Below, piece after piece: positions 6,898 through 15,874 of a stretch of DNA of 64,000 nt. Under the pieces are notes generated by a model. The model made no database searches. It was not told where the DNA came from and saw only the letters and a program-made list of their open reading frames with translations. Position numbers and translations under genes: made by a program. Each line of letters opens with the position of its first letter. Position 1 is the first letter of the stretch. Source of the stretch: Hyphomicrobiaceae bacterium (lineage in GTDB: Bacteria > Pseudomonadota > Alphaproteobacteria > Rhizobiales > Hyphomicrobiaceae); assembly GCA_049116495.1 (NCBI GenBank), contig JAGDYV010000029.1, positions 3,040 through 67,039 on the forward strand, in the 5' to 3' direction.

Positions 6898-7844
6898 CCG
6901 CGACAGACGACCACGTGCCGGCAAGCGTCAACCAGACCACGACGACGGCCAAGACGTCGAGCGGTGAAGGTGACACGCCCTTTCGCCGGTTCATGTCGGA
7001 CTTTGTCGAGAGCCCCGTCGCGGTATTCGCTCTGGGCCTGCTTGCCATAATCATCCTGTTGGCAGTTCTCGCTCCATTGATAACGCCACAGAATCCCTAT
7101 GACCTGGGACAGGTCGACATAATGGATGCGCGGCTGCCACCTGGTGAAGTGAGCATGGAAACCGGCATGACCTTCTGGTTGGGCACGGATGGTGCCGGCC
7201 GCGATTTGCTGAGCGGAATCCTCTATGGTTTGCGCATCTCGCTGGCGGTCGGCGTTTTGTCCGGTCTCATCGCCATGGCCATTGGTTCCGCAGTTGGCAT
7301 GCTGGCGGCTTATGCAGGTGGCCGCGTCGAAGGCTTCATAATGCGCATTGTTGATATGCAGCTGTCGTTTCCTGCAGTTCTTATCGCGCTGATGTTGGTT
7401 GCCGTGCTTGGCAAGGGCATCGACAAGATCATTATCGCGCTGATCATCGTGCAGTGGGCGTATTACGCCCGGACCATACGCGGCTCCGCATTGGTCGAGC
7501 GACGAAAGGAATACGTCGAGGCCGCCCGTGGTCTGGGCCTCAGCCATGCGCGCATTATGTTCAAGCACATTCTTCCGAATTGCCTACCGCCGCTTATCGT
7601 CGTTGGTACGGTCCAAACCGCGCATGCCATCGCGCTTGAAGCAACGTTGTCTTTTCTCGGCGTCGGTCTGCCGCAAACGGAGCCATCGCTCGGGCTGCTG
7701 ATCTCCAACGGCTTTGAATACCTGCTCTCTGGGAAATACTGGATAAGTACCTTCCCCGGTATCGCATTGCTGCTGACCATCATGTCCATCAACCTCGTCG
7801 GTGATCAATTGCGTGACGTGCTCAACCCGAGGCTGAGACGATAA
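6894..7844 (+). CDS. ABC transporter permease (DppC/OppC-like)
   Basis: Multi-pass membrane protein with the EAA-like motif YVEAARGLGLSHARIMFKHILPN. Translationally coupled on both sides (ATGA at 6894, TAATG at 7842-7846). Confidence 0.9.
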   Translation: MTATDDHVPASVNQTTTTAKTSSGEGDTPFRRFMSDFVESPVAVFALGLLAIIILLAVLAPLITPQNPYDLGQVDIMDARLPPGEVSMETGMTFWLGTDGAGRDLLSGILYGLRISLAVGVLSGLIAMAIGSAVGMLAAYAGGRVEGFIMRIVDMQLSFPAVLIALMLVAVLGKGIDKIIIALIIVQWAYYARTIRGSALVERRKEYVEAARGLGLSHARIMFKHILPNCLPPLIVVGTVQTAHAIALEATLSFLGVGLPQTEPSLGLLISNGFEYLLSGKYWISTFPGIALLLTIMSINLVGDQLRDVLNPRLRR

Positions 7845-8869
7845 TGGCAAACGCAACAGTGTCCTCTGGGACCACCGGCGCAACAGATCCCGCATTGGTG
7901 ATCGACGGGTTGAAGACGCACTTCTTCACGAAGGCCGGTGTCGTCAAAGCGGTCGATGGCGTCAGCTTTGATGTGAAGCCCGGCGAGATCCTGGGCCTGG
8001 TCGGCGAGTCTGGCAGTGGAAAGACGATCACTGGCTTCTCGATCATGGGCCTGATCGATGCCCCAGGTCGCGTCGTCGAGGGCGCCATTCATTTTGGCGG
8101 GCGCAATCTCGCGGGCATGGACGACGAAGCTCTGCGTTCGATCCGCGGCAACCGCATCGCGATGATATTCCAAGACCCGATGATGACACTGAACCCGGTC
8201 TTGCGGGTCGATACGCAACTGGTCGAGACGGTTCTGGCGCATCAGGATGTCGACCGAAAAACGGCTTTGGCGATGGCCCGCGACGCACTCGACCAGGTTG
8301 GGATTCCGTCACCGGAACGCCGCCTCAAAGCGTATCCGCACGAATTATCCGGCGGCATGCGCCAGCGCGTCGCCATTGCGATCGCGTTCATCAACAAGCC
8401 TGACCTGATCATCGCCGATGAACCGACCACCGCGCTCGATGTCACCATTCAGGCTCAGATCCTGTTCGAAGCCAAGGAGCTCTGCCGCAAGACCGGGACG
8501 GCGATGATCTGGATCACGCACGACCTCGCAGTGGTCGCCGCCCTCGCCGACCGCATTGCCGTGATGTACGCCGGCCGTATCGTCGAGATGGGTAGCACCG
8601 ATGAAGTCGTCGATCACCCCTTGCACCCGTACGCGGAAGGGCTGATTGGCTCAGTGCCGATCCAAAATCGCCGCGGCCAGCGTCTGACGCAGATCCCCGG
8701 GATGACACCATCCCTGCTCAACATGCCGGCTGGTTGCGCCTTTCGTGATCGCTGCGGTTACGCGACTGAAGCATGCATCAAGGAGCCGGAGGTGACCATG
8801 CCGCTGCCCGCTGCGCCAGGGCGACAGGTGCGCTGCTTCCATCCACTGCTTTCGGTGGAGACCGCATGA
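7844..8869 (+). CDS. ABC transporter ATP-binding protein (DppD/OppD-like)
   Basis: Walker A GESGSGKT, signature LSGGMRQRV, Walker B LIIADEPTTALD, and the C-terminal oligopeptide-transporter extension with a Cys-containing tail. Confidence 0.92.
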   Translation: MANATVSSGTTGATDPALVIDGLKTHFFTKAGVVKAVDGVSFDVKPGEILGLVGESGSGKTITGFSIMGLIDAPGRVVEGAIHFGGRNLAGMDDEALRSIRGNRIAMIFQDPMMTLNPVLRVDTQLVETVLAHQDVDRKTALAMARDALDQVGIPSPERRLKAYPHELSGGMRQRVAIAIAFINKPDLIIADEPTTALDVTIQAQILFEAKELCRKTGTAMIWITHDLAVVAALADRIAVMYAGRIVEMGSTDEVVDHPLHPYAEGLIGSVPIQNRRGQRLTQIPGMTPSLLNMPAGCAFRDRCGYATEACIKEPEVTMPLPAAPGRQVRCFHPLLSVETA

Positions 8870-9900
8870 TGACAGTTGAACAGCCCTCCAAGTCGCTCAC
8901 CAATGAAGGACCAATCATTGAAGCGCGCGGAATTACCAAGAATTTCGTCAAGAAACTCGACCTCGCGGGCCGCATCGCGTCTCGGCTCGGTTCGGACCTA
9001 CGCGATGAGACCGTGCATGCTGTCGACAACGTCGATTTAACCGTTGCCCAGGGCGAGGTCGTCGGTCTTGTCGGGGAATCTGGCTGCGGAAAATCCACGA
9101 TTGGCCGCGTGATCGCCGGACTGCTGGATCCTACTGAAGGAGACATCCTTTTCAAGGGAACCCGCCGCGACGACCTGCGCGGCGATGAGGCCGCGCACGA
9201 ACGCCTTGCCGTGCAGATGATTTTTCAAGATCCTTACGCCTCCCTCAATCCACGCATGCGTGTAGAAAACATCGTCGGCGAAGCACCACTCGTACATGGC
9301 CTGATCAGCAGGGCCGAGCAGCCTGACTATGTCGCGGAAATGCTGCGTGACGTTGGCCTCGATCCCGACTTCAGGCGGCGCTATCCGCACCAGTTTTCCG
9401 GCGGCCAACGCAGCCGCATCGGTATTGCGCGCGCGCTCGCGGTGAAGCCTGAGTTTCTGGTCTGCGATGAGGCCGTCGCCGCCCTTGATGTGTCGATCCA
9501 GGCTCAGGTGATCAACCTGTTCATGGACCTGCGCGAACAGTTCGATCTGACGTATCTTTTCATCAGCCACGACTTGAGCGTCGTGCAGCACATCTCCGAC
9601 CGGATCGTGATCATGTATCTCGGCCGTATTGTCGAGAGTGGCCCGACGGAGGAGTTCTTTGCGAGCCCCAACCACCCCTACGCCCGCGCGCTACTCGAAG
9701 AAATCCCGCGCCTCGACCAGCGCAAGCGAACGTTCCATCCGATCAAAGGCGAGATACCGTCGCCGATCGATCCGCCCAGCGGCTGTCACTTCCACCCGCG
9801 CTGCCCGCATGCCATGGAGCGCTGCCGCGCCGAGGCGCCTGCACTGCGCGAAATCGCCCCCGGGCGATTGTCAGCCTGTCATTTGAACGATCAATCCTGA
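8866..9900 (+). CDS. ABC transporter ATP-binding protein (DppF/OppF-like)
   Basis: Start chosen at ATG 8866 (ATGA overlap with the upstream stop); the ORF-track start at 8773 lies inside the upstream gene. Walker A GESGCGKST, signature FSGGQRSRI, Walker B FLVCDEAVAALD. Confidence 0.9.
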   Translation: MMTVEQPSKSLTNEGPIIEARGITKNFVKKLDLAGRIASRLGSDLRDETVHAVDNVDLTVAQGEVVGLVGESGCGKSTIGRVIAGLLDPTEGDILFKGTRRDDLRGDEAAHERLAVQMIFQDPYASLNPRMRVENIVGEAPLVHGLISRAEQPDYVAEMLRDVGLDPDFRRRYPHQFSGGQRSRIGIARALAVKPEFLVCDEAVAALDVSIQAQVINLFMDLREQFDLTYLFISHDLSVVQHISDRIVIMYLGRIVESGPTEEFFASPNHPYARALLEEIPRLDQRKRTFHPIKGEIPSPIDPPSGCHFHPRCPHAMERCRAEAPALREIAPGRLSACHLNDQS

Positions 9901-9949
9901 CGGCGCTTCGTCGGCCTTGCCGTATCGCGTCGTTGCACCGGCGGCCCGC

Positions 9950-11524
9950 TCACTCCGTTCGAAGTGTGCCTTCGGAAGCGGCTTCCACCTGCGAATCCGC
10001 GATCGTCACGGCTGGGCTCGCCACGCGCCCTTTCCGATCCGGCACCATTGAGTATTCTTCATCGTCCTGTGGCGCACCCCAAAATTCTGCAAGCGATGGC
10101 CCACCTTTCGTCAACCGGGTCCGCACAAAATCGAAGATCTCATGGAACCAGACCCGCCTTCCCATCTTCGCGTACCAGCGCATCGATTGGCGGAGCACCG
10201 GATCGGGATGAAAGAATGTTCGATAGAGCGCCTTGGGTCTTGCCTGCACGATCACTTCGGTTGCCTTGACCCAGAGAAGTATCCGCCACGGCGCCAGGTA
10301 AGTGTTGGCAAGCACCTGATGCTTGTAGTCCCAGCGTCGCCGGTCCTTCTGGATAACCATGCGAGACTGCGTCTCGGCGAAAAACGGCGTCCAACGATGC
10401 GGCGTGATGTAGAGCATGATGATTTGGTCCGGATCATAGGCTATCAGTTGGCGCAGACCGCGCAGATAGTCGCCGTCTCGTTCGTGTTCAAAGCCGACGA
10501 CCCAACTCGCAAGTGACAGGATACCGTTCGCGCGGAGCAGTCGGATCGCCTGATAGTCAGTCGCCGTGGTCGAGCCCTTCTTGATTCTTTGCAGTGTCGC
10601 TTCATCAGTACTTTCGGTGCCTAGTAGAAAGCGGATGCATCCTGCTTTCCGGTAAAGGTGCAGAATGTCGGCGTCGCGGACAATGTCACCGGCGCGAGTC
10701 GTGCCGATGATCAGAAGGTTCGTATCCTCTGCGATCAACGCCTCGAGGAACTGCCGCCAGGCGCGCCGCGATGACGTCGGGTTTTCGTCCGCCAAGTTGA
10801 CCAGTTCGACGCCCTCCTCACGATGCAGGCGCGCCAGTTCCTTGGCGAACTTAACCGGGTCACGATAACGCCAACGCGACCAAAACCCGCGCTGGCCGCA
10901 ATAGGTGCACAGGTGCGGGCACCCGCGAGAAAACTGCGCGATAACCGCTTTCTTGCCGCCCCAGTAACTGTAGTCGTTATGATCAATCAATTCCCAGCCA
11001 ACCCGGTAGGCATCTAAATCCTTGATCATCGCAGCCGGACGCGTTGCGACGGGTCTGCCGTTTTTCGTAAATGCAATGCCACTCACCGCGTCGAGCGGCT
11101 GGCACGCTTCGAGTGCCGCGATCAATTGGCGTGTTGTCTCTTCGCCCTCGCCTCTCACGATTGCCGTCACGTAAGGTTCTTCAGCAAGCACGTCACGCCA
11201 ATGATAGGTCGGATAGACACCGCCGTAGACGATTGCGATGTCGGGACTAGCCACGGCGATTTCGGACGCCACCTTGGCGATCGTCGGGTGCGCCGACGTC
11301 GATCCGGTGTGGCCGAACATGACGACATCAGGAAGGTGCCTGACGATTGCCGCGACGAGCGCATCGGGCGTTTCGGGCTTGATATCGCCATCGATCAAGC
11401 ACACGTCATGACCGTCATCGATAAGCGGTCCGGCGACACACAACAGACCGTACGGCGGAAGGTGATCGTCGGGAATGCGACTGCCGATGGCCGTATGCGG
11501 GACATTGATGAGGAGGATACGCAT
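9950..11524 (-). CDS. B12-binding-domain radical SAM enzyme (class B rSAM; methyltransferase/BchE/Hpn-like superfamily, specific function unknown)
   Basis: 524 aa. N-terminal Rossmann-like cobalamin-binding region (MRILLINVPH...GLLCVAGPLIDDGHDVCLIDGD) followed by the radical-SAM cluster motif FSRGCPHLCTYCGQ (CxxxCxxC). GGAGAAG lies upstream of the ATG. Confidence 0.85.
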   Translation of the reverse strand: MRILLINVPHTAIGSRIPDDHLPPYGLLCVAGPLIDDGHDVCLIDGDIKPETPDALVAAIVRHLPDVVMFGHTGSTSAHPTIAKVASEIAVASPDIAIVYGGVYPTYHWRDVLAEEPYVTAIVRGEGEETTRQLIAALEACQPLDAVSGIAFTKNGRPVATRPAAMIKDLDAYRVGWELIDHNDYSYWGGKKAVIAQFSRGCPHLCTYCGQRGFWSRWRYRDPVKFAKELARLHREEGVELVNLADENPTSSRRAWRQFLEALIAEDTNLLIIGTTRAGDIVRDADILHLYRKAGCIRFLLGTESTDEATLQRIKKGSTTATDYQAIRLLRANGILSLASWVVGFEHERDGDYLRGLRQLIAYDPDQIIMLYITPHRWTPFFAETQSRMVIQKDRRRWDYKHQVLANTYLAPWRILLWVKATEVIVQARPKALYRTFFHPDPVLRQSMRWYAKMGRRVWFHEIFDFVRTRLTKGGPSLAEFWGAPQDDEEYSMVPDRKGRVASPAVTIADSQVEAASEGTLRTE

Positions 11525-11627
11525 GTTACTTCTCCGTAGCGGACAACAAAAGTTTCCGCTTGCGCCTCGATCTCACGAGGTCAGGAACGAAACCGACACA
11601 CGGTTCGTGGTGGTGTGATGGATTGAT

Positions 11628-12353
11628 TCAGCTCGCGACTTGCGGCGTGGCGACGCCAACGCTGTCATCGAGCGCACCGAAGCGGCGGTTGCGACGCCTG
11701 AACTCGCACAACGCTTGTTCAAGATCGTCCGCGCCGAAGTCAGGCCAGAATTTTTCGAGGAAAATCAACTCGGCGTAGGCACCTTCCCACAGCAGGAAGT
11801 CGGACAGACGCTGCTCCCCGCCGGTGCGTATGATGACATCGACATTCACCGGTCCGCCGTCGCCGGCGAGTGCCTTGCCGAATGCATCGATGCTCGAGCC
11901 ACATCGCGTAAATCTATCGGCGACGGCCAGAATAGATTCTCGCCCTGAATAGTCGAGCGCGATGCGAACGTGCAGGCCGTCGCACGCAGAGGTGACGTTT
12001 TCCGCATGCTTGATGAGGCTGACGATGTCGTCCTGCAGCCGGTCGCGCCTGCCAATGAACGTCAAGCGCACATTGTGCGCCGTCAAAGATGCCAATTCGC
12101 GCGACAGAAAATTTCGGATGAGCGTCATGAGTGCGGCAACCTCTCCCTTAGGCCGCATCCAGTTCGCAGACGAAAAGGCGTAAATCGTCAATGACCGCAG
12201 CGCCAATCGACAACCTGCCTCGATGGTCGAGCGCAGGGCCGATACGCCGGCGTAATGACCTGACGACCTGGACAGTCCCCTGCGTTCGGCCCAGCGACCA
12301 TTGCCATCCATGATGATGCCAACATCAATTCTGCTATTCAGATTACTTTGCAT
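11628..12353 (-). CDS. cis-Isoprenyl (undecaprenyl) diphosphate synthase family protein (UppS paralog by context)
   Basis: Canonical cis-prenyltransferase motifs: IIMDGNGRWAERRG, LTIYAFSSANWMRP, FIGRRDRL, IIRTGGEQRLSDFLLWEGAYAELIF, RRNRRFGA. The start is either ATG 12353 or ATG 12383. It is not in the usual frr-uppS-cdsA context. Confidence 0.85.
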   Translation of the reverse strand: MQSNLNSRIDVGIIMDGNGRWAERRGLSRSSGHYAGVSALRSTIEAGCRLALRSLTIYAFSSANWMRPKGEVAALMTLIRNFLSRELASLTAHNVRLTFIGRRDRLQDDIVSLIKHAENVTSACDGLHVRIALDYSGRESILAVADRFTRCGSSIDAFGKALAGDGGPVNVDVIIRTGGEQRLSDFLLWEGAYAELIFLEKFWPDFGADDLEQALCEFRRRNRRFGALDDSVGVATPQVAS

Positions 12354-12361
12354 TACAAAGT
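12345..12361. promoter_or_regulatory. Palindrome ACTTTG-cattA-CAAAGT overlapping the UppS-like start codon (operator-like site B)
   Basis: Read directly: 6-bp perfect arms with a 5-bp spacer. The ATG (minus strand, 12353-12351) sits in the spacer. The same arms recur at 13461-13477. Confidence 0.5.
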
Positions 12362-12450
12362 TTCCTTTCGAAAAAATGCACACTTTCCGTGCGCCGATCT
12401 ACACGCTCAAGGTGTTTGCGGAAATGATCATCCAGGTTTTACTCGACGCT

Positions 12451-12822
12451 CTATGCTGGCTTCAATTTCGAGCCCGATCGAAGCGCTTTTTGGGATTTGT
12501 AAGCATCCCTGACAACCCTCTCCAATTCGTCAATGTATGCCGTAAACCGTTCGCGCCCGACCTTGGTCAGCGCGCATGTTGTCAGCGGCCGCTTGCCCTC
12601 ATAGCCTTTGATGACGCGCACGAAACCAGCCTCTTCCAGGACCTGTATGTGCCGGCTGAGGTTGCCGTCGGTCAGTCCGCAAAGCCGCTTCAGGTCGCCA
12701 AACGCCAAACCATCGGGATGGCTGATCAGCGATGTCATGATCCCAAGCCGCGCTTTTTCATGCAGCACCCTGTCCAGTCCGGAATAGGCAAACGGCGCTT
12801 CAGGCGTGTCACGCTTCGGCAT
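12451..12822 (-). CDS. Winged-helix (ArsR/HTH_34-like) transcriptional regulator
   Basis: 123 aa. LDRVLHEKARLGIMTSLISHPDGLAFGDLKRLCGLTDGNLSRHIQVLEEAGFVRVIKGYEGKRPLTTCALTKVGRERF is a typical wHTH (helix-turn-helix plus wing) layout. Confidence 0.8.
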   Translation of the reverse strand: MPKRDTPEAPFAYSGLDRVLHEKARLGIMTSLISHPDGLAFGDLKRLCGLTDGNLSRHIQVLEEAGFVRVIKGYEGKRPLTTCALTKVGRERFTAYIDELERVVRDAYKSQKALRSGSKLKPA

Positions 12823-13444
12823 CGCTGTCCTCCGCAGTCGAAAGCTTCAAGACAAGGGCCATCGAAAACTGTCCGATTGCAAAAGGAAACCCCATGAGCC
12901 AGGTGCTGAGCACATCGCCCGGTTGCGCAAAATATTTGGCAGCGATGATCAACACGCATATGCCGGACACTAGATACCATCCAGCGACCAACTTGATCGA
13001 CCGCGGCAGATTGCGCGCGGCGGAGAACAGACCGAGTGCGACGAGCACTTGCCAAATACCAGGCAGCAGCCAGGAGGCGTTTGGGGCAAACTGAAGGATG
13101 ACAACTCCAATGGCCGCGCCAGACAAGCCCGCTGGTATGAAATTCTCGATTGCACTGATGAGCATGGCGTCGGCCAGGCCGCCATGCTCGCGATAGGTGC
13201 GGGAGATCATTTCGCTGCCGATCATGCCGGCGCAGACCAATGCCGTCGCCGTCCACCACAGCAGATAAGTCTCATTGTCGCCAGCAAAGGCCTGCGGCCA
13301 GGTCGACTGCAGAAATGCCATACCAATGGCCAGGCCGCCGGTCAGCGCTATGACGAGCGGTCCGAACCCGCGAAACAATGTGTCTGCCGCGAGACGACTG
13401 CGAATATCGACGATGTCTGCCAGGGCCTTGTCTAGCTCACTCAT
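12809..13444 (-). CDS. Hypothetical polytopic membrane protein (first gene of the regulator operon)
   Basis: 211 aa from ATG 13444 (MSELDKALADIV...). Several hydrophobic spans (GPLVIALTGGLAIGMAF, LLWWTATALVCAGMIG, AIGVVILQFAP, GIWQVLVALGLF, GWYLVSGICVLIIAA). 14-nt overlap with the regulator gene. The longer ORF to 13627 adds sequence that does not look like protein. Confidence 0.6.
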   Translation of the reverse strand: MSELDKALADIVDIRSRLAADTLFRGFGPLVIALTGGLAIGMAFLQSTWPQAFAGDNETYLLWWTATALVCAGMIGSEMISRTYREHGGLADAMLISAIENFIPAGLSGAAIGVVILQFAPNASWLLPGIWQVLVALGLFSAARNLPRSIKLVAGWYLVSGICVLIIAAKYFAQPGDVLSTWLMGFPFAIGQFSMALVLKLSTAEDSDAEA

Positions 13445-13460
13445 CTTTGCCTCGCACCTT

Positions 13461-13477
13461 ACTTTGTATTGCAAAGT
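13461..13477. promoter_or_regulatory. Palindrome ACTTTG-tattG-CAAAGT, 17 nt upstream of the membrane-protein start (operator-like site A)
   Basis: Read directly: the same 6-bp arms and 5-bp spacing as site B at 12345-12361. It lies in the promoter/5' UTR region of the minus-strand operon. Confidence 0.5.
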
Positions 13478-13644
13478 ATTATGTAAATTGAATGTGCGCA
13501 AGCATAGATGCAAGGTTGTCGTTAAAAAGGTTGCCGGCGGGCGGCGCCATGCAAGCAGCTGCGTGCTTCGCACGCGGGGCACGGTCGCTGTTGCGGCCTC
13601 GAAAGTGAATGCGACTGGATACGACATGCATCAGCATGTCGGAA

Positions 13645-14529
13645 TCACTTCTTGCTGACGAAGCGATACGTCACAAGCTCTTTGCGTGTGAAAATATAAA
13701 GTTGATCGCTCGGTGTCTTCATGGCGTGAATCCAGGCAGCTGGATCGATACCCATTTTGCCGAGATGCTCCTGCACCTGACCGCTGATGGCCTGCGCATG
13801 CGCCATGCCATCATTGATGCCGCCTGGCGTCGCCGCCGCTGCATAGATTTGGTGCACGCCGATCCACGCCCGTCTACCGGCCGTGCGACGCTTGCCACCC
13901 GAAAAAACGATCGGACACGATGAAGCGCAATAAGCATCAGTCGGCACGACCGTGTCGATATTGTTGCGTCTCAGCACGCGAGACATTTCAAGAGCATCAC
14001 GCACCGATCCACCAGGCGAATGCAGATAGAGCCTTTTCAACTCGCCAGACTGAGCTTCGAGGAAGTTGGCAAATTGCTTGTCCGTGCCCTTTCCAATGCG
14101 ACCCACCGCACTGGCAGCACCATTCGGCCCCCGCACAAATGTCATCGGTTGCCCGACCGCTTTGTGTGGCACGGGTTTTGAATATCCCGGCAGCCTTGCT
14201 TCCTTGCCGGATCGATGTATCGGCGTCGCACGCGGCAGGTAAGGACGCACCTGGTCCTGCCGTCGAGGCGGCTGCATCACCACCGGTTCAGTTTGCTTGA
14301 CTTGTCCAGGGAGAGGCGCGCTGGCCTCCTCATAAATCTGTCGGAAGTCGAGCGCGATGAAGACGACCGCCGCCGTTGCCAAGCCGCGAAACACCAGGCG
14401 CAGCAGATTGTCTTCGCTGATCCATCGCAGGAAGATCGACTTGGGTCGAGCCGCGTGGTCCTGAGCGGTCGTGGCGTGTTCATTGGCTGGCGGTTCGATC
14501 ACGGCCCTAGTCCCTCGTTTGCTCGCCAT
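13645..14529 (-). CDS. Membrane-anchored ClpP/SppA-fold-like periplasmic protein (resembles the 'predicted periplasmic protein' COG3904 group)
   Basis: One N-terminal TM span (LVFRGLATAAVVFIALDF). The C-terminal domain has LYLHSPGGSVRDALEMSRVLR...AYCASSCPIVFSGGKRR, reminiscent of the ClpP-fold oxyanion and Ser regions. Confidence 0.6.
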   Translation of the reverse strand: MASKRGTRAVIEPPANEHATTAQDHAARPKSIFLRWISEDNLLRLVFRGLATAAVVFIALDFRQIYEEASAPLPGQVKQTEPVVMQPPRRQDQVRPYLPRATPIHRSGKEARLPGYSKPVPHKAVGQPMTFVRGPNGAASAVGRIGKGTDKQFANFLEAQSGELKRLYLHSPGGSVRDALEMSRVLRRNNIDTVVPTDAYCASSCPIVFSGGKRRTAGRRAWIGVHQIYAAAATPGGINDGMAHAQAISGQVQEHLGKMGIDPAAWIHAMKTPSDQLYIFTRKELVTYRFVSKK

Positions 14530-15874
14530 GCTGTGGTTTTGTCATGTTGAAATGGGACACATTACCGGAGGCAGCAGGCGGAGCAGCTACATCACCCCCC
14601 TTGCCATCGCCGAACTCTCCCTGGATTTGCCGAAAAAGATGCACTGCACGCATCATGTCCGCGGCACTCATGGCTTCGGCGTCGACATCAACACCGCCAT
14701 CACGGCGAATCTGTGCCTCGACGACGGTCATGATCATGATCAAGACGGCCGGTAGCAGGTCGATCGATATCGCCCCGGCCCAGCTTGGTAGAAAGTCGCG
14801 CGCATAGAGCAGAACCGCTTCGGGCGGCGACAGCGGTTGAAACCGCGGCGGCACGACCGGTTCTCGCTCCAAAATCTCATCGGCTGCGCGTGAAAGCGCA
14901 CGGCTCTGCGTGCGCACCGCCTGTTCCACCCGACCGACCACGGCCGTCTGCCGAGCTTGCAGCGAAGCATCGCGACCATCCGCGATCGGTGCGATAAAAC
15001 TGCTTCCAAGGTCTTCGGCAACGCGCTTGACGGATGGCGCGACGGATGTCTGCTGCAAGGCACCAATCTGACCAATCAGCTTCAACGCCTCCTCACCAAA
15101 CGAGTTGGCCCGCGCATCAATCGGGCCGGTGTTCGAAATGAGCGCACGCATGCGCGCCAGATGACGCCCTCCCTGATCGAATAACCGTTTTACATCGTCA
15201 CGACTGGCGGCGACTTGATCTGCAAGTCCGTCGAGTTCCGTCGACATCTGCGTTAACAATTGAACGACCGTGCCAGAGCCTGAGGTGCCGGTCAGGGCGC
15301 CCGATGCGCGTTCCTGTTGTGCCAGGCTGGCAAAACGCTTTGAGGCGAGCCTAATATCGGGCAACAAACTCTGGGCCGCCAACGCGTTGGAATGCGCCTT
15401 GTCCAGGCGCTCCTGATAAACCTCAGTCGCATTCGCCATATGCTGCTCAAGCGCCGCGGAGCCAGCCAACGCCGCGGCGTTGAGCCAACTCGACATGGCG
15501 ATGATCATCGCCGACCCGATCGCCATTGCGATGTACAGCATGAAAGCCGATCGCGCATTGTCGGTGTGCGGCAAGAAACGCATCAAATAGGACCAGAACG
15601 CATAGATGCCGACGGAGACAGCGGCTGAATAAATGACAGCGCCAAAGAACACGACCGTCGTCGTGCCACTCAACAGGCCTCTTACACCGAGATATGTGTA
15701 GACGCCGCTCGCAAGTGCCAAGACGGCCAGAGTGACCTTCGTCGTTACATCAAGCTGTATCTGCCCAGCCTTGAGCTTTGCTACCATTTGATGATCCTTT
15801 GGCAGTGACGAGGCGCGTTCAACTAGCGCCGAATCTGAGGGTGTTGATGTTATTCGGAGTACATTTGACGACAC
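14507..15874 (-). CDS. Hypothetical membrane protein with a long helical (coiled-coil-like) central region
   Basis: 455-aa ORF. An alternative start at ATG 15787 (MVAKLKAG...) has the better SD (AAAGGA). It has N-terminal TM spans, an Ala/Leu/Gln-rich helical middle and a C-terminal TM span (ISIDLLPAVLIMIMTVV). 23-nt overlap with the downstream gene. Confidence 0.6.
   Translation of the reverse strand: MSSNVLRITSTPSDSALVERASSLPKDHQMVAKLKAGQIQLDVTTKVTLAVLALASGVYTYLGVRGLLSGTTTVVFFGAVIYSAAVSVGIYAFWSYLMRFLPHTDNARSAFMLYIAMAIGSAMIIAMSSWLNAAALAGSAALEQHMANATEVYQERLDKAHSNALAAQSLLPDIRLASKRFASLAQQERASGALTGTSGSGTVVQLLTQMSTELDGLADQVAASRDDVKRLFDQGGRHLARMRALISNTGPIDARANSFGEEALKLIGQIGALQQTSVAPSVKRVAEDLGSSFIAPIADGRDASLQARQTAVVGRVEQAVRTQSRALSRAADEILEREPVVPPRFQPLSPPEAVLLYARDFLPSWAGAISIDLLPAVLIMIMTVVEAQIRRDGGVDVDAEAMSAADMMRAVHLFRQIQGEFGDGKGGDVAAPPAASGNVSHFNMTKPQHGEQTRD

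Follow-up and report, generated by a model that had tools for sequence, protein, structure and literature searches.

The 64,000-nucleotide stretch of DNA analysed here (hereafter the window; forward strand of contig JAGDYV010000029.1, positions 3,040 to 67,039, from assembly GCA_049116495.1 of a Hyphomicrobiaceae bacterium) carries on its minus strand four genes that encode, in 5′ to 3′ order, a membrane protein, a winged-helix regulator of the HTH_34 family, a paralog of the cis-prenyltransferase UppS and a class B (cobalamin-binding) radical SAM enzyme that resembles BchE. With moderate confidence, we interpret this locus as a repressor-controlled accessory module that would make a cis-polyprenyl lipid, whose tailoring by the B12 enzyme would proceed without oxygen. 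This interpretation stems from a recurring theme, isoprenoid supply combined with prenyl-chain modification, that is found under one and the same sensor–repressor design.

In the mechanism that we propose, the HTH_34 protein would repress two units through a single palindrome, namely the membrane protein–regulator operon and the UppS–radical SAM unit, the operator covering the start codon in the latter case. The repressor would be released by the co-translated membrane protein, the probable sensor of a membrane or lipid signal. The UppS paralog would make a cis-polyprenyl diphosphate from isopentenyl diphosphate, and the presumably co-transcribed radical SAM enzyme would modify the chain in a cobalamin-dependent, oxygen-independent reaction. 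This modification might be a C-methylation or else an oxidation, in the latter case a hydroxylation or desaturation of the kind that BchE carries out on its substrate. The features of the locus, in window coordinates, are as follows.

13461..13477, no strand: operator O1, a 17-bp palindrome (ACTTTG-N5-CAAAGT), 17 nt 5′ of the membrane-protein gene
12809..13444, minus: 211-aa polytopic membrane protein, presumed partner of the regulator and sensor
12451..12822, minus: 123-aa HTH_34 winged-helix regulator, ArsR-like (PF13601, 80 bits)
12378..12394, minus: terminator-like hairpin with a trailing T-run, in the interval from the regulator gene to the UppS unit (consensus scan)
12345..12361, no strand: operator O2, a second site of this palindrome, with the UppS ATG (12353) within its spacer
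11628..12353, minus: UppS paralog (cis-prenyl diphosphate synthase), 241 aa from ATG 12353 (PF01255, TIGR00055)
11525..11627, minus: 103-nt spacer between the UppS and radical SAM genes
9950..11524, minus: BchE-like class B (cobalamin-binding) radical SAM enzyme, 524 aa (B12-binding and Radical_SAM domains)

As the original prediction for this locus had it, the third gene is a complete one of the UppS type. Its product scores 221 bits against PF01255 (cut-off 27) and 201 bits against TIGR00055 (cut-off 109.6), while the 301 bits obtained with the best NCBIfam model, NF011412 (PRK14839), fall short of the cut-off of 334. Alignment with E. coli UppS shows that the catalytic and substrate-binding motifs (DGNGRW, GH, FSSxNW-RP, RTGGExRLSDFLLW and RRFG) are intact and that the catalytic regions, helix α-3 included, contain no gaps; the catalytic motifs are likewise conserved across 22 paralogs. 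E. coli UppS (PDB 1JP3/5CQB), a member of the same fold family, is also the best match to the paralog in the PDB, with 166 bits over the full length. An irregular synthase of the lavandulyl or cyclolavandulyl type, which had been suggested, is unlikely, the score being 59 bits for CLDS versus 166 bits for E. coli UppS. The gene had been drawn as extending to a GTG at 12383, but translation almost certainly starts at the ATG at 12353, since 21 of the 22 paralogs begin with MQS and this codon is preceded at a short distance by an AGGAA ribosome-binding site.

A second, housekeeping uppS, whose existence was to be checked, is indeed present in the genome (C15:12569-13231), within the arrangement pyrH-frr-uppS-cdsA-dxr. 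The window copy thus lies outside the housekeeping frr-uppS-cdsA-rseP context, as had been stated, and is a true paralog, 43% identical to the housekeeping enzyme of its own genome. In a tree of 22 cassette and 12 housekeeping copies, the cassette copies are set apart by a branch that has 99% support in the Shimodaira–Hasegawa-like approximate likelihood ratio test (SH-aLRT). The C15 copy and the separate clade together rule out that the window UppS is simply the housekeeping gene, that is, the sole copy within pyrH-frr-uppS-cdsA. In contrast to E. coli UppS, it also has a predicted repressor operator over its ATG. Compared with housekeeping enzymes, the cassette copies share a 9-residue deletion and, near E. 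coli positions 73, 144, 146, 203 and 208, conservative substitutions; these clade-specific features, the substitutions lying in the region of the active site, suggest a distinct product or a distinct control. At the E. coli tunnel-residue positions compared with regard to chain length, the housekeeping enzymes differ as well.

Twenty genomes and about ten metagenome contigs were found to carry the cassette. Its constant core consists of the membrane protein, the regulator and UppS, in the same order in all 19 loci examined, and the arrangement of this core is identical in G776, a genome from another order. The original prediction had correctly placed the UppS–radical SAM pair behind a regulator and a membrane-protein gene, although the order of these two has to be corrected: the membrane protein comes first and the regulator second. 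Since five genomes of the same genus lack both the regulator and the radical SAM enzyme, the unit is accessory.

The linkage of UppS to the radical SAM gene was assessed in a sample of 400 genomes of the order. The radical SAM family occurs in 20 of them (57–77% identity) and the paralog-type UppS in about 23. Both genes are present in seven, where about one would be expected from the separate frequencies (here as in the other genome counts, the genomes are not phylogenetically independent), and they are adjacent in all seven. Genome G018 and the window genome raise this count to nine of nine genomes having both the cassette and the radical SAM family. The genomes that show the four-gene order are G000, G362, G018, G173, G383, G106, G148, G378 and G350, and the metagenome contigs L144 and L168 show it too. 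That the two genes are neighbours by chance, with no functional or regulatory tie, could be argued from the 103-nt gap that separates them and from the fact that each occurs without the other in other genomes. This is nevertheless very improbable given the excess of joint occurrence and the invariable adjacency just described, the recurrence of order and spacing in nine genomes of at least five families and two metagenome contigs, and the grouping of the linked radical SAM enzymes in a single clade. The co-occurrence and synteny search that had been proposed therefore yielded a recurrent association. The pair does not, however, form a conserved unit by itself, since the invariant core ends with UppS and about one third of the cassettes carry the enzyme. 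Of the earlier proposal that the pair builds and modifies a prenyl lipid, what holds, as far as sequences can tell, is that the adjacency recurs and that the position after UppS is apparently occupied by isoprenoid enzymes.

The fourth gene does encode a 524-aa class B radical SAM protein, on the same strand and 103 nt downstream, as described earlier: B12-binding (PF02310, 66 bits) and Radical_SAM (PF04055, 62 bits) domains were identified, and the CxxxCxxC motif reads CPHLCTYC (residues 202–209). The window genome likely synthesises cobalamin, since CbiJ was detected (239 bits). Comparison with models of class B enzymes, another of the checks that had been suggested, showed BchE to be the nearest named family, with which the protein shares its overall architecture. 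It scores 517.6 bits against the BchE equivalog model TIGR02026, above the cut-off of 481.35, and sources name its homologs, of which 4,203 were retrieved from databases, as the cyclase, among them proteins of non-phototrophs such as Microvirga, and of Bradyrhizobium species. Judged by its sequence, the enzyme is nonetheless almost certainly not the chlorophyll cyclase BchE, and the name wrong, because the protein belongs to a separate, low-scoring clade found mostly in genomes without reaction-centre genes. The TIGRFAM text for TIGR02026 is reported to mention a second clade, from Synechocystis and non-photosynthetic bacteria, whose role is uncertain.

In spite of the equivalog score and of the database names, a true BchE at this locus would be extremely improbable. 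The enzyme is 32–34% identical to true BchE, and a very long branch separates the two groups in a quick IQ-TREE tree. Across 23 genomes carrying this clade, TIGR02026 scores fall into two peaks, at 495–573 bits (lower where the gene is truncated) versus 801–817 bits; the latter group comprises three genes, two of them about 27 kb from pufLM, true BchE being located in photosynthesis clusters. Photo_RC is absent from 15 of the 23 genomes, and G106, G148 and G116 possess both types of enzyme, the first two being phototrophs, as is G173. No reaction-centre genes, and no BchM above its cut-off, were found in the window genome, which is 90% complete. Moreover, according to a review, knocking out the three bchE homologs of Synechocystis produced no cyclase phenotype (PMC4500134). 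One genome of the same genus contains a true BchE-type gene (G002:C8:121184-122362, locus L017; N-terminus HPNYHSGGAEIAG), which falls in the true-BchE clade. Phototrophy may thus vary within the genus, no reaction-centre genes having been found in the window genome.

Within the tree, the UppS-linked enzymes form one clade (99% support), with an additional member in G340, where the UppS gene has been lost. A scan of genome contigs returned seven loci. Unlinked members have as neighbours an Lrp-type regulator, a RidA-like protein, GST and EutC. The single exception among these neighbours is a DUF4153 gene, situated directly 5′ of an otherwise unlinked BchE-like enzyme in G116 (L049, G116:C1, 7151-10332). 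In another locus (L047, G008:C1:908000-926000, approximately 7400–15300), an unlinked BchE-like gene and a gene for a 370-aa secreted-looking protein lie between an eutB-like gene and eutC. This arrangement separates the two subunits of a B12-dependent ethanolamine ammonia-lyase, and an ethanolamine-permease-like gene adjoins; EutC was confirmed by Pfam (316 bits), whereas the eutB and permease assignments come from visual inspection.

Control of the module can be approached through its regulator and operators. The regulator matches PF13601 with 80 bits, against a cut-off of 27, and is 60–73% identical in all cassettes. It resembles ArsR/SmtB-like repressors in being a small winged-helix protein with a palindromic operator and predicted autoregulation. 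Membership in the ArsR/SmtB metalloregulators proper (NF033788) was rejected, as 28.9 bits fall below the cut-off of 55. The system differs from those repressors further in that the partner is a membrane protein of 6–7 helices and the predicted targets are isoprenoid or envelope genes. The 6.4-Mb genome contains exactly two copies of the palindrome ACTTTG-N5-CAAAGT, and both of them (O1 and O2) belong to this locus. Among the 19 cassette loci, a site equivalent to O1 is present in 18 and one equivalent to O2 in 16. The half-site of O2, ATGCAAAGT, itself encodes the MQS start, which accounts for the retention of these three residues in 21 of 22 paralogs. In a scan of metagenomes for the motif, biased to operators containing ATG, an HTH_34 gene adjoined the palindrome in 44 of 80 contigs; the motif is therefore tied to the HTH_34 regulator family. 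Among the metagenome loci L093–L172, the operator ACTTTGnAATGCAAAGT, beside which an HTH_34 gene lies, stands before CreD in 8–9 contigs, before IspH in three, and before HMG-CoA synthase and a Lcp/MpaB rubber-oxygenase-like gene in one each. As several of the non-UppS payloads of the HTH_34 family likewise begin with MQS, an operator overlapping the start codon appears to be a general design of this family.

The ATG of the regulator overlaps the 3′ end of the membrane-protein gene by 14 nt. A consensus scan found neither a terminator-like nor a promoter-like site in the 103-nt spacer between the UppS and radical SAM genes, and no sigma-70-like promoter was found in a scan of the locus. Terminator-like sites are no more numerous in the region than in shuffled sequence, so that the hairpin at 12378..12394 is weak evidence. 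No Rfam match was obtained within window positions 9500–14000. The membrane protein has no match in Pfam or NCBIfam, but it is 44–61% identical across 18 cassettes, with 40 invariant residues. Its AlphaFold2 model is all-helical (predicted local distance difference test score, pLDDT, 84), and a Foldseek comparison of this model with the PDB gave nothing below E = 0.27. An Atlas search with the protein returned only hypothetical proteins, from several phyla.

The position 3′ of UppS is variable. The BchE-like enzyme occupies it in nine genomes and in contigs L144 and L168, and a second, unrelated class B radical SAM enzyme does so in G063, G146, G776, L131 and L147. This second type carries the cluster motif CPQHC[DT]FC and scores about 80 bits with the best NCBIfam model, and its three genome copies are 71–73% identical; in L141, where UppS is missing, an enzyme of the same type comes directly behind the regulator, with a DgkA-like gene after it. 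A membrane-anchored protein similar to linalool dehydratase/isomerase (Ldi; 243 bits) is found together with a DgkA-family kinase and DUF4153 in G096, G125 and G325, and L138 contains in this slot a flavoprotein of the geranylgeranyl-reductase family (TIGR02032, 135 bits, under the cut-off of 159). No recognisable gene follows UppS in eight cassette genomes.

Several of these partners also occur fused to UppS. Fusions with a ferritin-like diiron domain, common among the closest longer UppS homologs, make up 16 protein clusters (P0131–P0143, P0150 and P0151 among them), of which 13 begin with MQS or MMQS. They are about 500 aa long and contain two [ED]ExxH motifs spaced 79 residues apart, in a domain that is weakly similar to AurF, rubrerythrin and desaturase models. 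P0146 joins UppS to the second radical SAM type, and P0148 joins it to a FAD reductase-like domain of the geranylgeranyl-reductase family. UppS–DUF4153 fusions form five clusters (P0217, P0218 and P0227–P0229), UppS–IspH fusions eight, and P0145 is a CreD–UppS fusion. Since the slot after UppS otherwise holds enzymes of isoprenoid chemistry, the idea that the product is a tailored prenyl lipid is backed by this comparison.

The wider regulator family points in the same direction as regards isoprenoids. Across 30 metagenome contigs, the gene next to an HTH_34 regulator of this operator type, on its downstream side, encodes CreD (eight), UppS (seven), IspH (three), or HMG-CoA synthase, a Lcp/MpaB rubber-oxygenase-like protein, DUF4153 or SIMPL (one each); isoprenoid enzymes are thus over-represented at this first position behind related regulators. 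In L100, a diiron-domain gene comes next after an IspH gene. The second operator in G512 precedes a DUF4153 gene (L090, G512:C1, 2128-3849). DUF4153 membrane proteins are hence connected to the system in four ways, as a neighbour in G116, as an operator target in G512, in the Ldi/DgkA variant and as a fusion with UppS. We found no paper on the function of DUF4153, on a second alphaproteobacterial uppS or on the pairing of UppS with a radical SAM enzyme, in keeping with the earlier impression that the combination had not been described.

Alternatively, the cassette may be an inducible back-up supply of the ordinary undecaprenyl carrier, synthesis of which would rise when the membrane sensor registers envelope stress or a lack of carrier; the radical SAM enzyme would then be merely co-regulated and would act on a different, widely available substrate. 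We regard this explanation as possible but rather unlikely. It would be consistent with the presence of IspH, HMG-CoA synthase and the envelope protein CreD behind related regulators with the same operator, with the DgkA-like gene (undecaprenol-kinase family) of some cassettes and with the eight cassettes devoid of any tailoring gene. It would also fit the distribution of the radical SAM family, which mostly occurs without the cassette (56–64% identity) and reaches Cyanobacteria and Sumerlaeota. On the other hand, a mere supply of carrier would not readily account for the repeated presence in the slot of chain-modifying types (two class B radical SAM families, geranylgeranyl-reductase-like, Ldi-like and diiron proteins), several of them fused to UppS. 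The active-site-region substitutions and the deletion that set the paralogs apart also suggest a product or a control of their own.

The interpretation of the locus as a tailoring module has for its part to face several observations that weigh against it. About two thirds of the cassettes are without this radical SAM enzyme. Conversely, 13 of the 20 genomes of the order sample that have the radical SAM family have no cassette, so that the ancestral substrate of this family cannot be the product of the paralog alone; no conserved and no isoprenoid neighbour shared by the unlinked enzymes was found. The CreD, IspH and HMG-CoA synthase payloads fit a supply or envelope-stress response equally well as tailoring. 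Finally, some of the UppS fusions may be artefacts of gene calling, P0161 looking frameshifted.

If the enzyme does tailor the product of the paralog, the nature of the reaction has to be considered. C-methylation, named first in the original prediction, is no better supported than an oxidation of the BchE type, since BchE (518 bits) is by far a closer match than HpnR or HpnJ. Membership in the HpnP, HpnR and HpnJ families was rejected on scores, with 117.6 bits against a cut-off of 650 for HpnR and 62.2 against 577.6 for HpnJ. HpnP, HpnR and HpnJ provide a parallel in that they are cobalamin radical SAM enzymes encoded beside genes that build an isoprenoid lipid, the lipid being modified in their case. 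Here, however, it would be a linear cis-polyprenyl and not a hopanoid. A further parallel comes from chlorophyll synthesis, where the diiron, O2-dependent AcsF and BchE carry out one reaction with or without O2 (PMC7319587). By analogy, the coupling of the UppS paralog either to a fused diiron domain or to a B12 radical SAM enzyme recalls this alternation, which, together with the BchE-like sequence, would make oxidation no less likely than methylation. The models that the fused diiron domain matches, and weakly so, are those of AurF, rubrerythrin and desaturase, not AcsF; the shared reaction is an analogy only. A bolder and more doubtful extension of these arguments would combine two proposals. 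The pair formed by the membrane protein and the HTH_34 regulator would be, across phyla, a dedicated sensor–repressor of polyprenyl or isoprenoid-lipid status, and the BchE-like clade of non-phototrophs would be the oxygen-independent B12 counterpart of the UppS-fused diiron domain. Both enzymes would then act on a cis-polyprenyl phosphate, by oxidation or by some other modification, and so yield a novel modified lipid carrier or membrane lipid.

The surroundings of the locus in the window were also inspected. Directly 5′ of the cassette, two overlapping genes on the minus strand (13645–15874) encode a 455-aa coiled-coil membrane protein and a 294-aa, weakly ClpP-like protein (NF045542, 32 bits); the adjacency of this pair to the cassette is not kept in other genomes. 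At the other end, a plus-strand gene for an oligopeptide/dipeptide ABC-transporter ATPase (8773–9900; ABC_tran and oligo_HPY) converges on the radical SAM gene, from which it is separated by a 49-nt gap, and forms the downstream boundary of the four-gene unit.

Thousands of database proteins in the BchE-like clade carry the name of chlorophyll cyclase, and the role of such homologs has been open since the Synechocystis knockouts failed to show a phenotype (PMC4500134). The linkage to a dedicated cis-prenyltransferase offers the first concrete, testable substrate hypothesis for this clade. The cassette may be viewed as a small regulon, with a putative sensor, a predicted repressor and two operators, whose payloads across bacteria are enzymes of isoprenoid supply and candidate modifiers of prenyl chains. 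It suggests that a hitherto undescribed circuit controls polyprenyl lipids, the carriers required in cell-wall and glycan synthesis. If these bacteria do contain modified polyprenyl phosphates, such compounds would be relevant both to envelope biology and to the lipid biomarker record.

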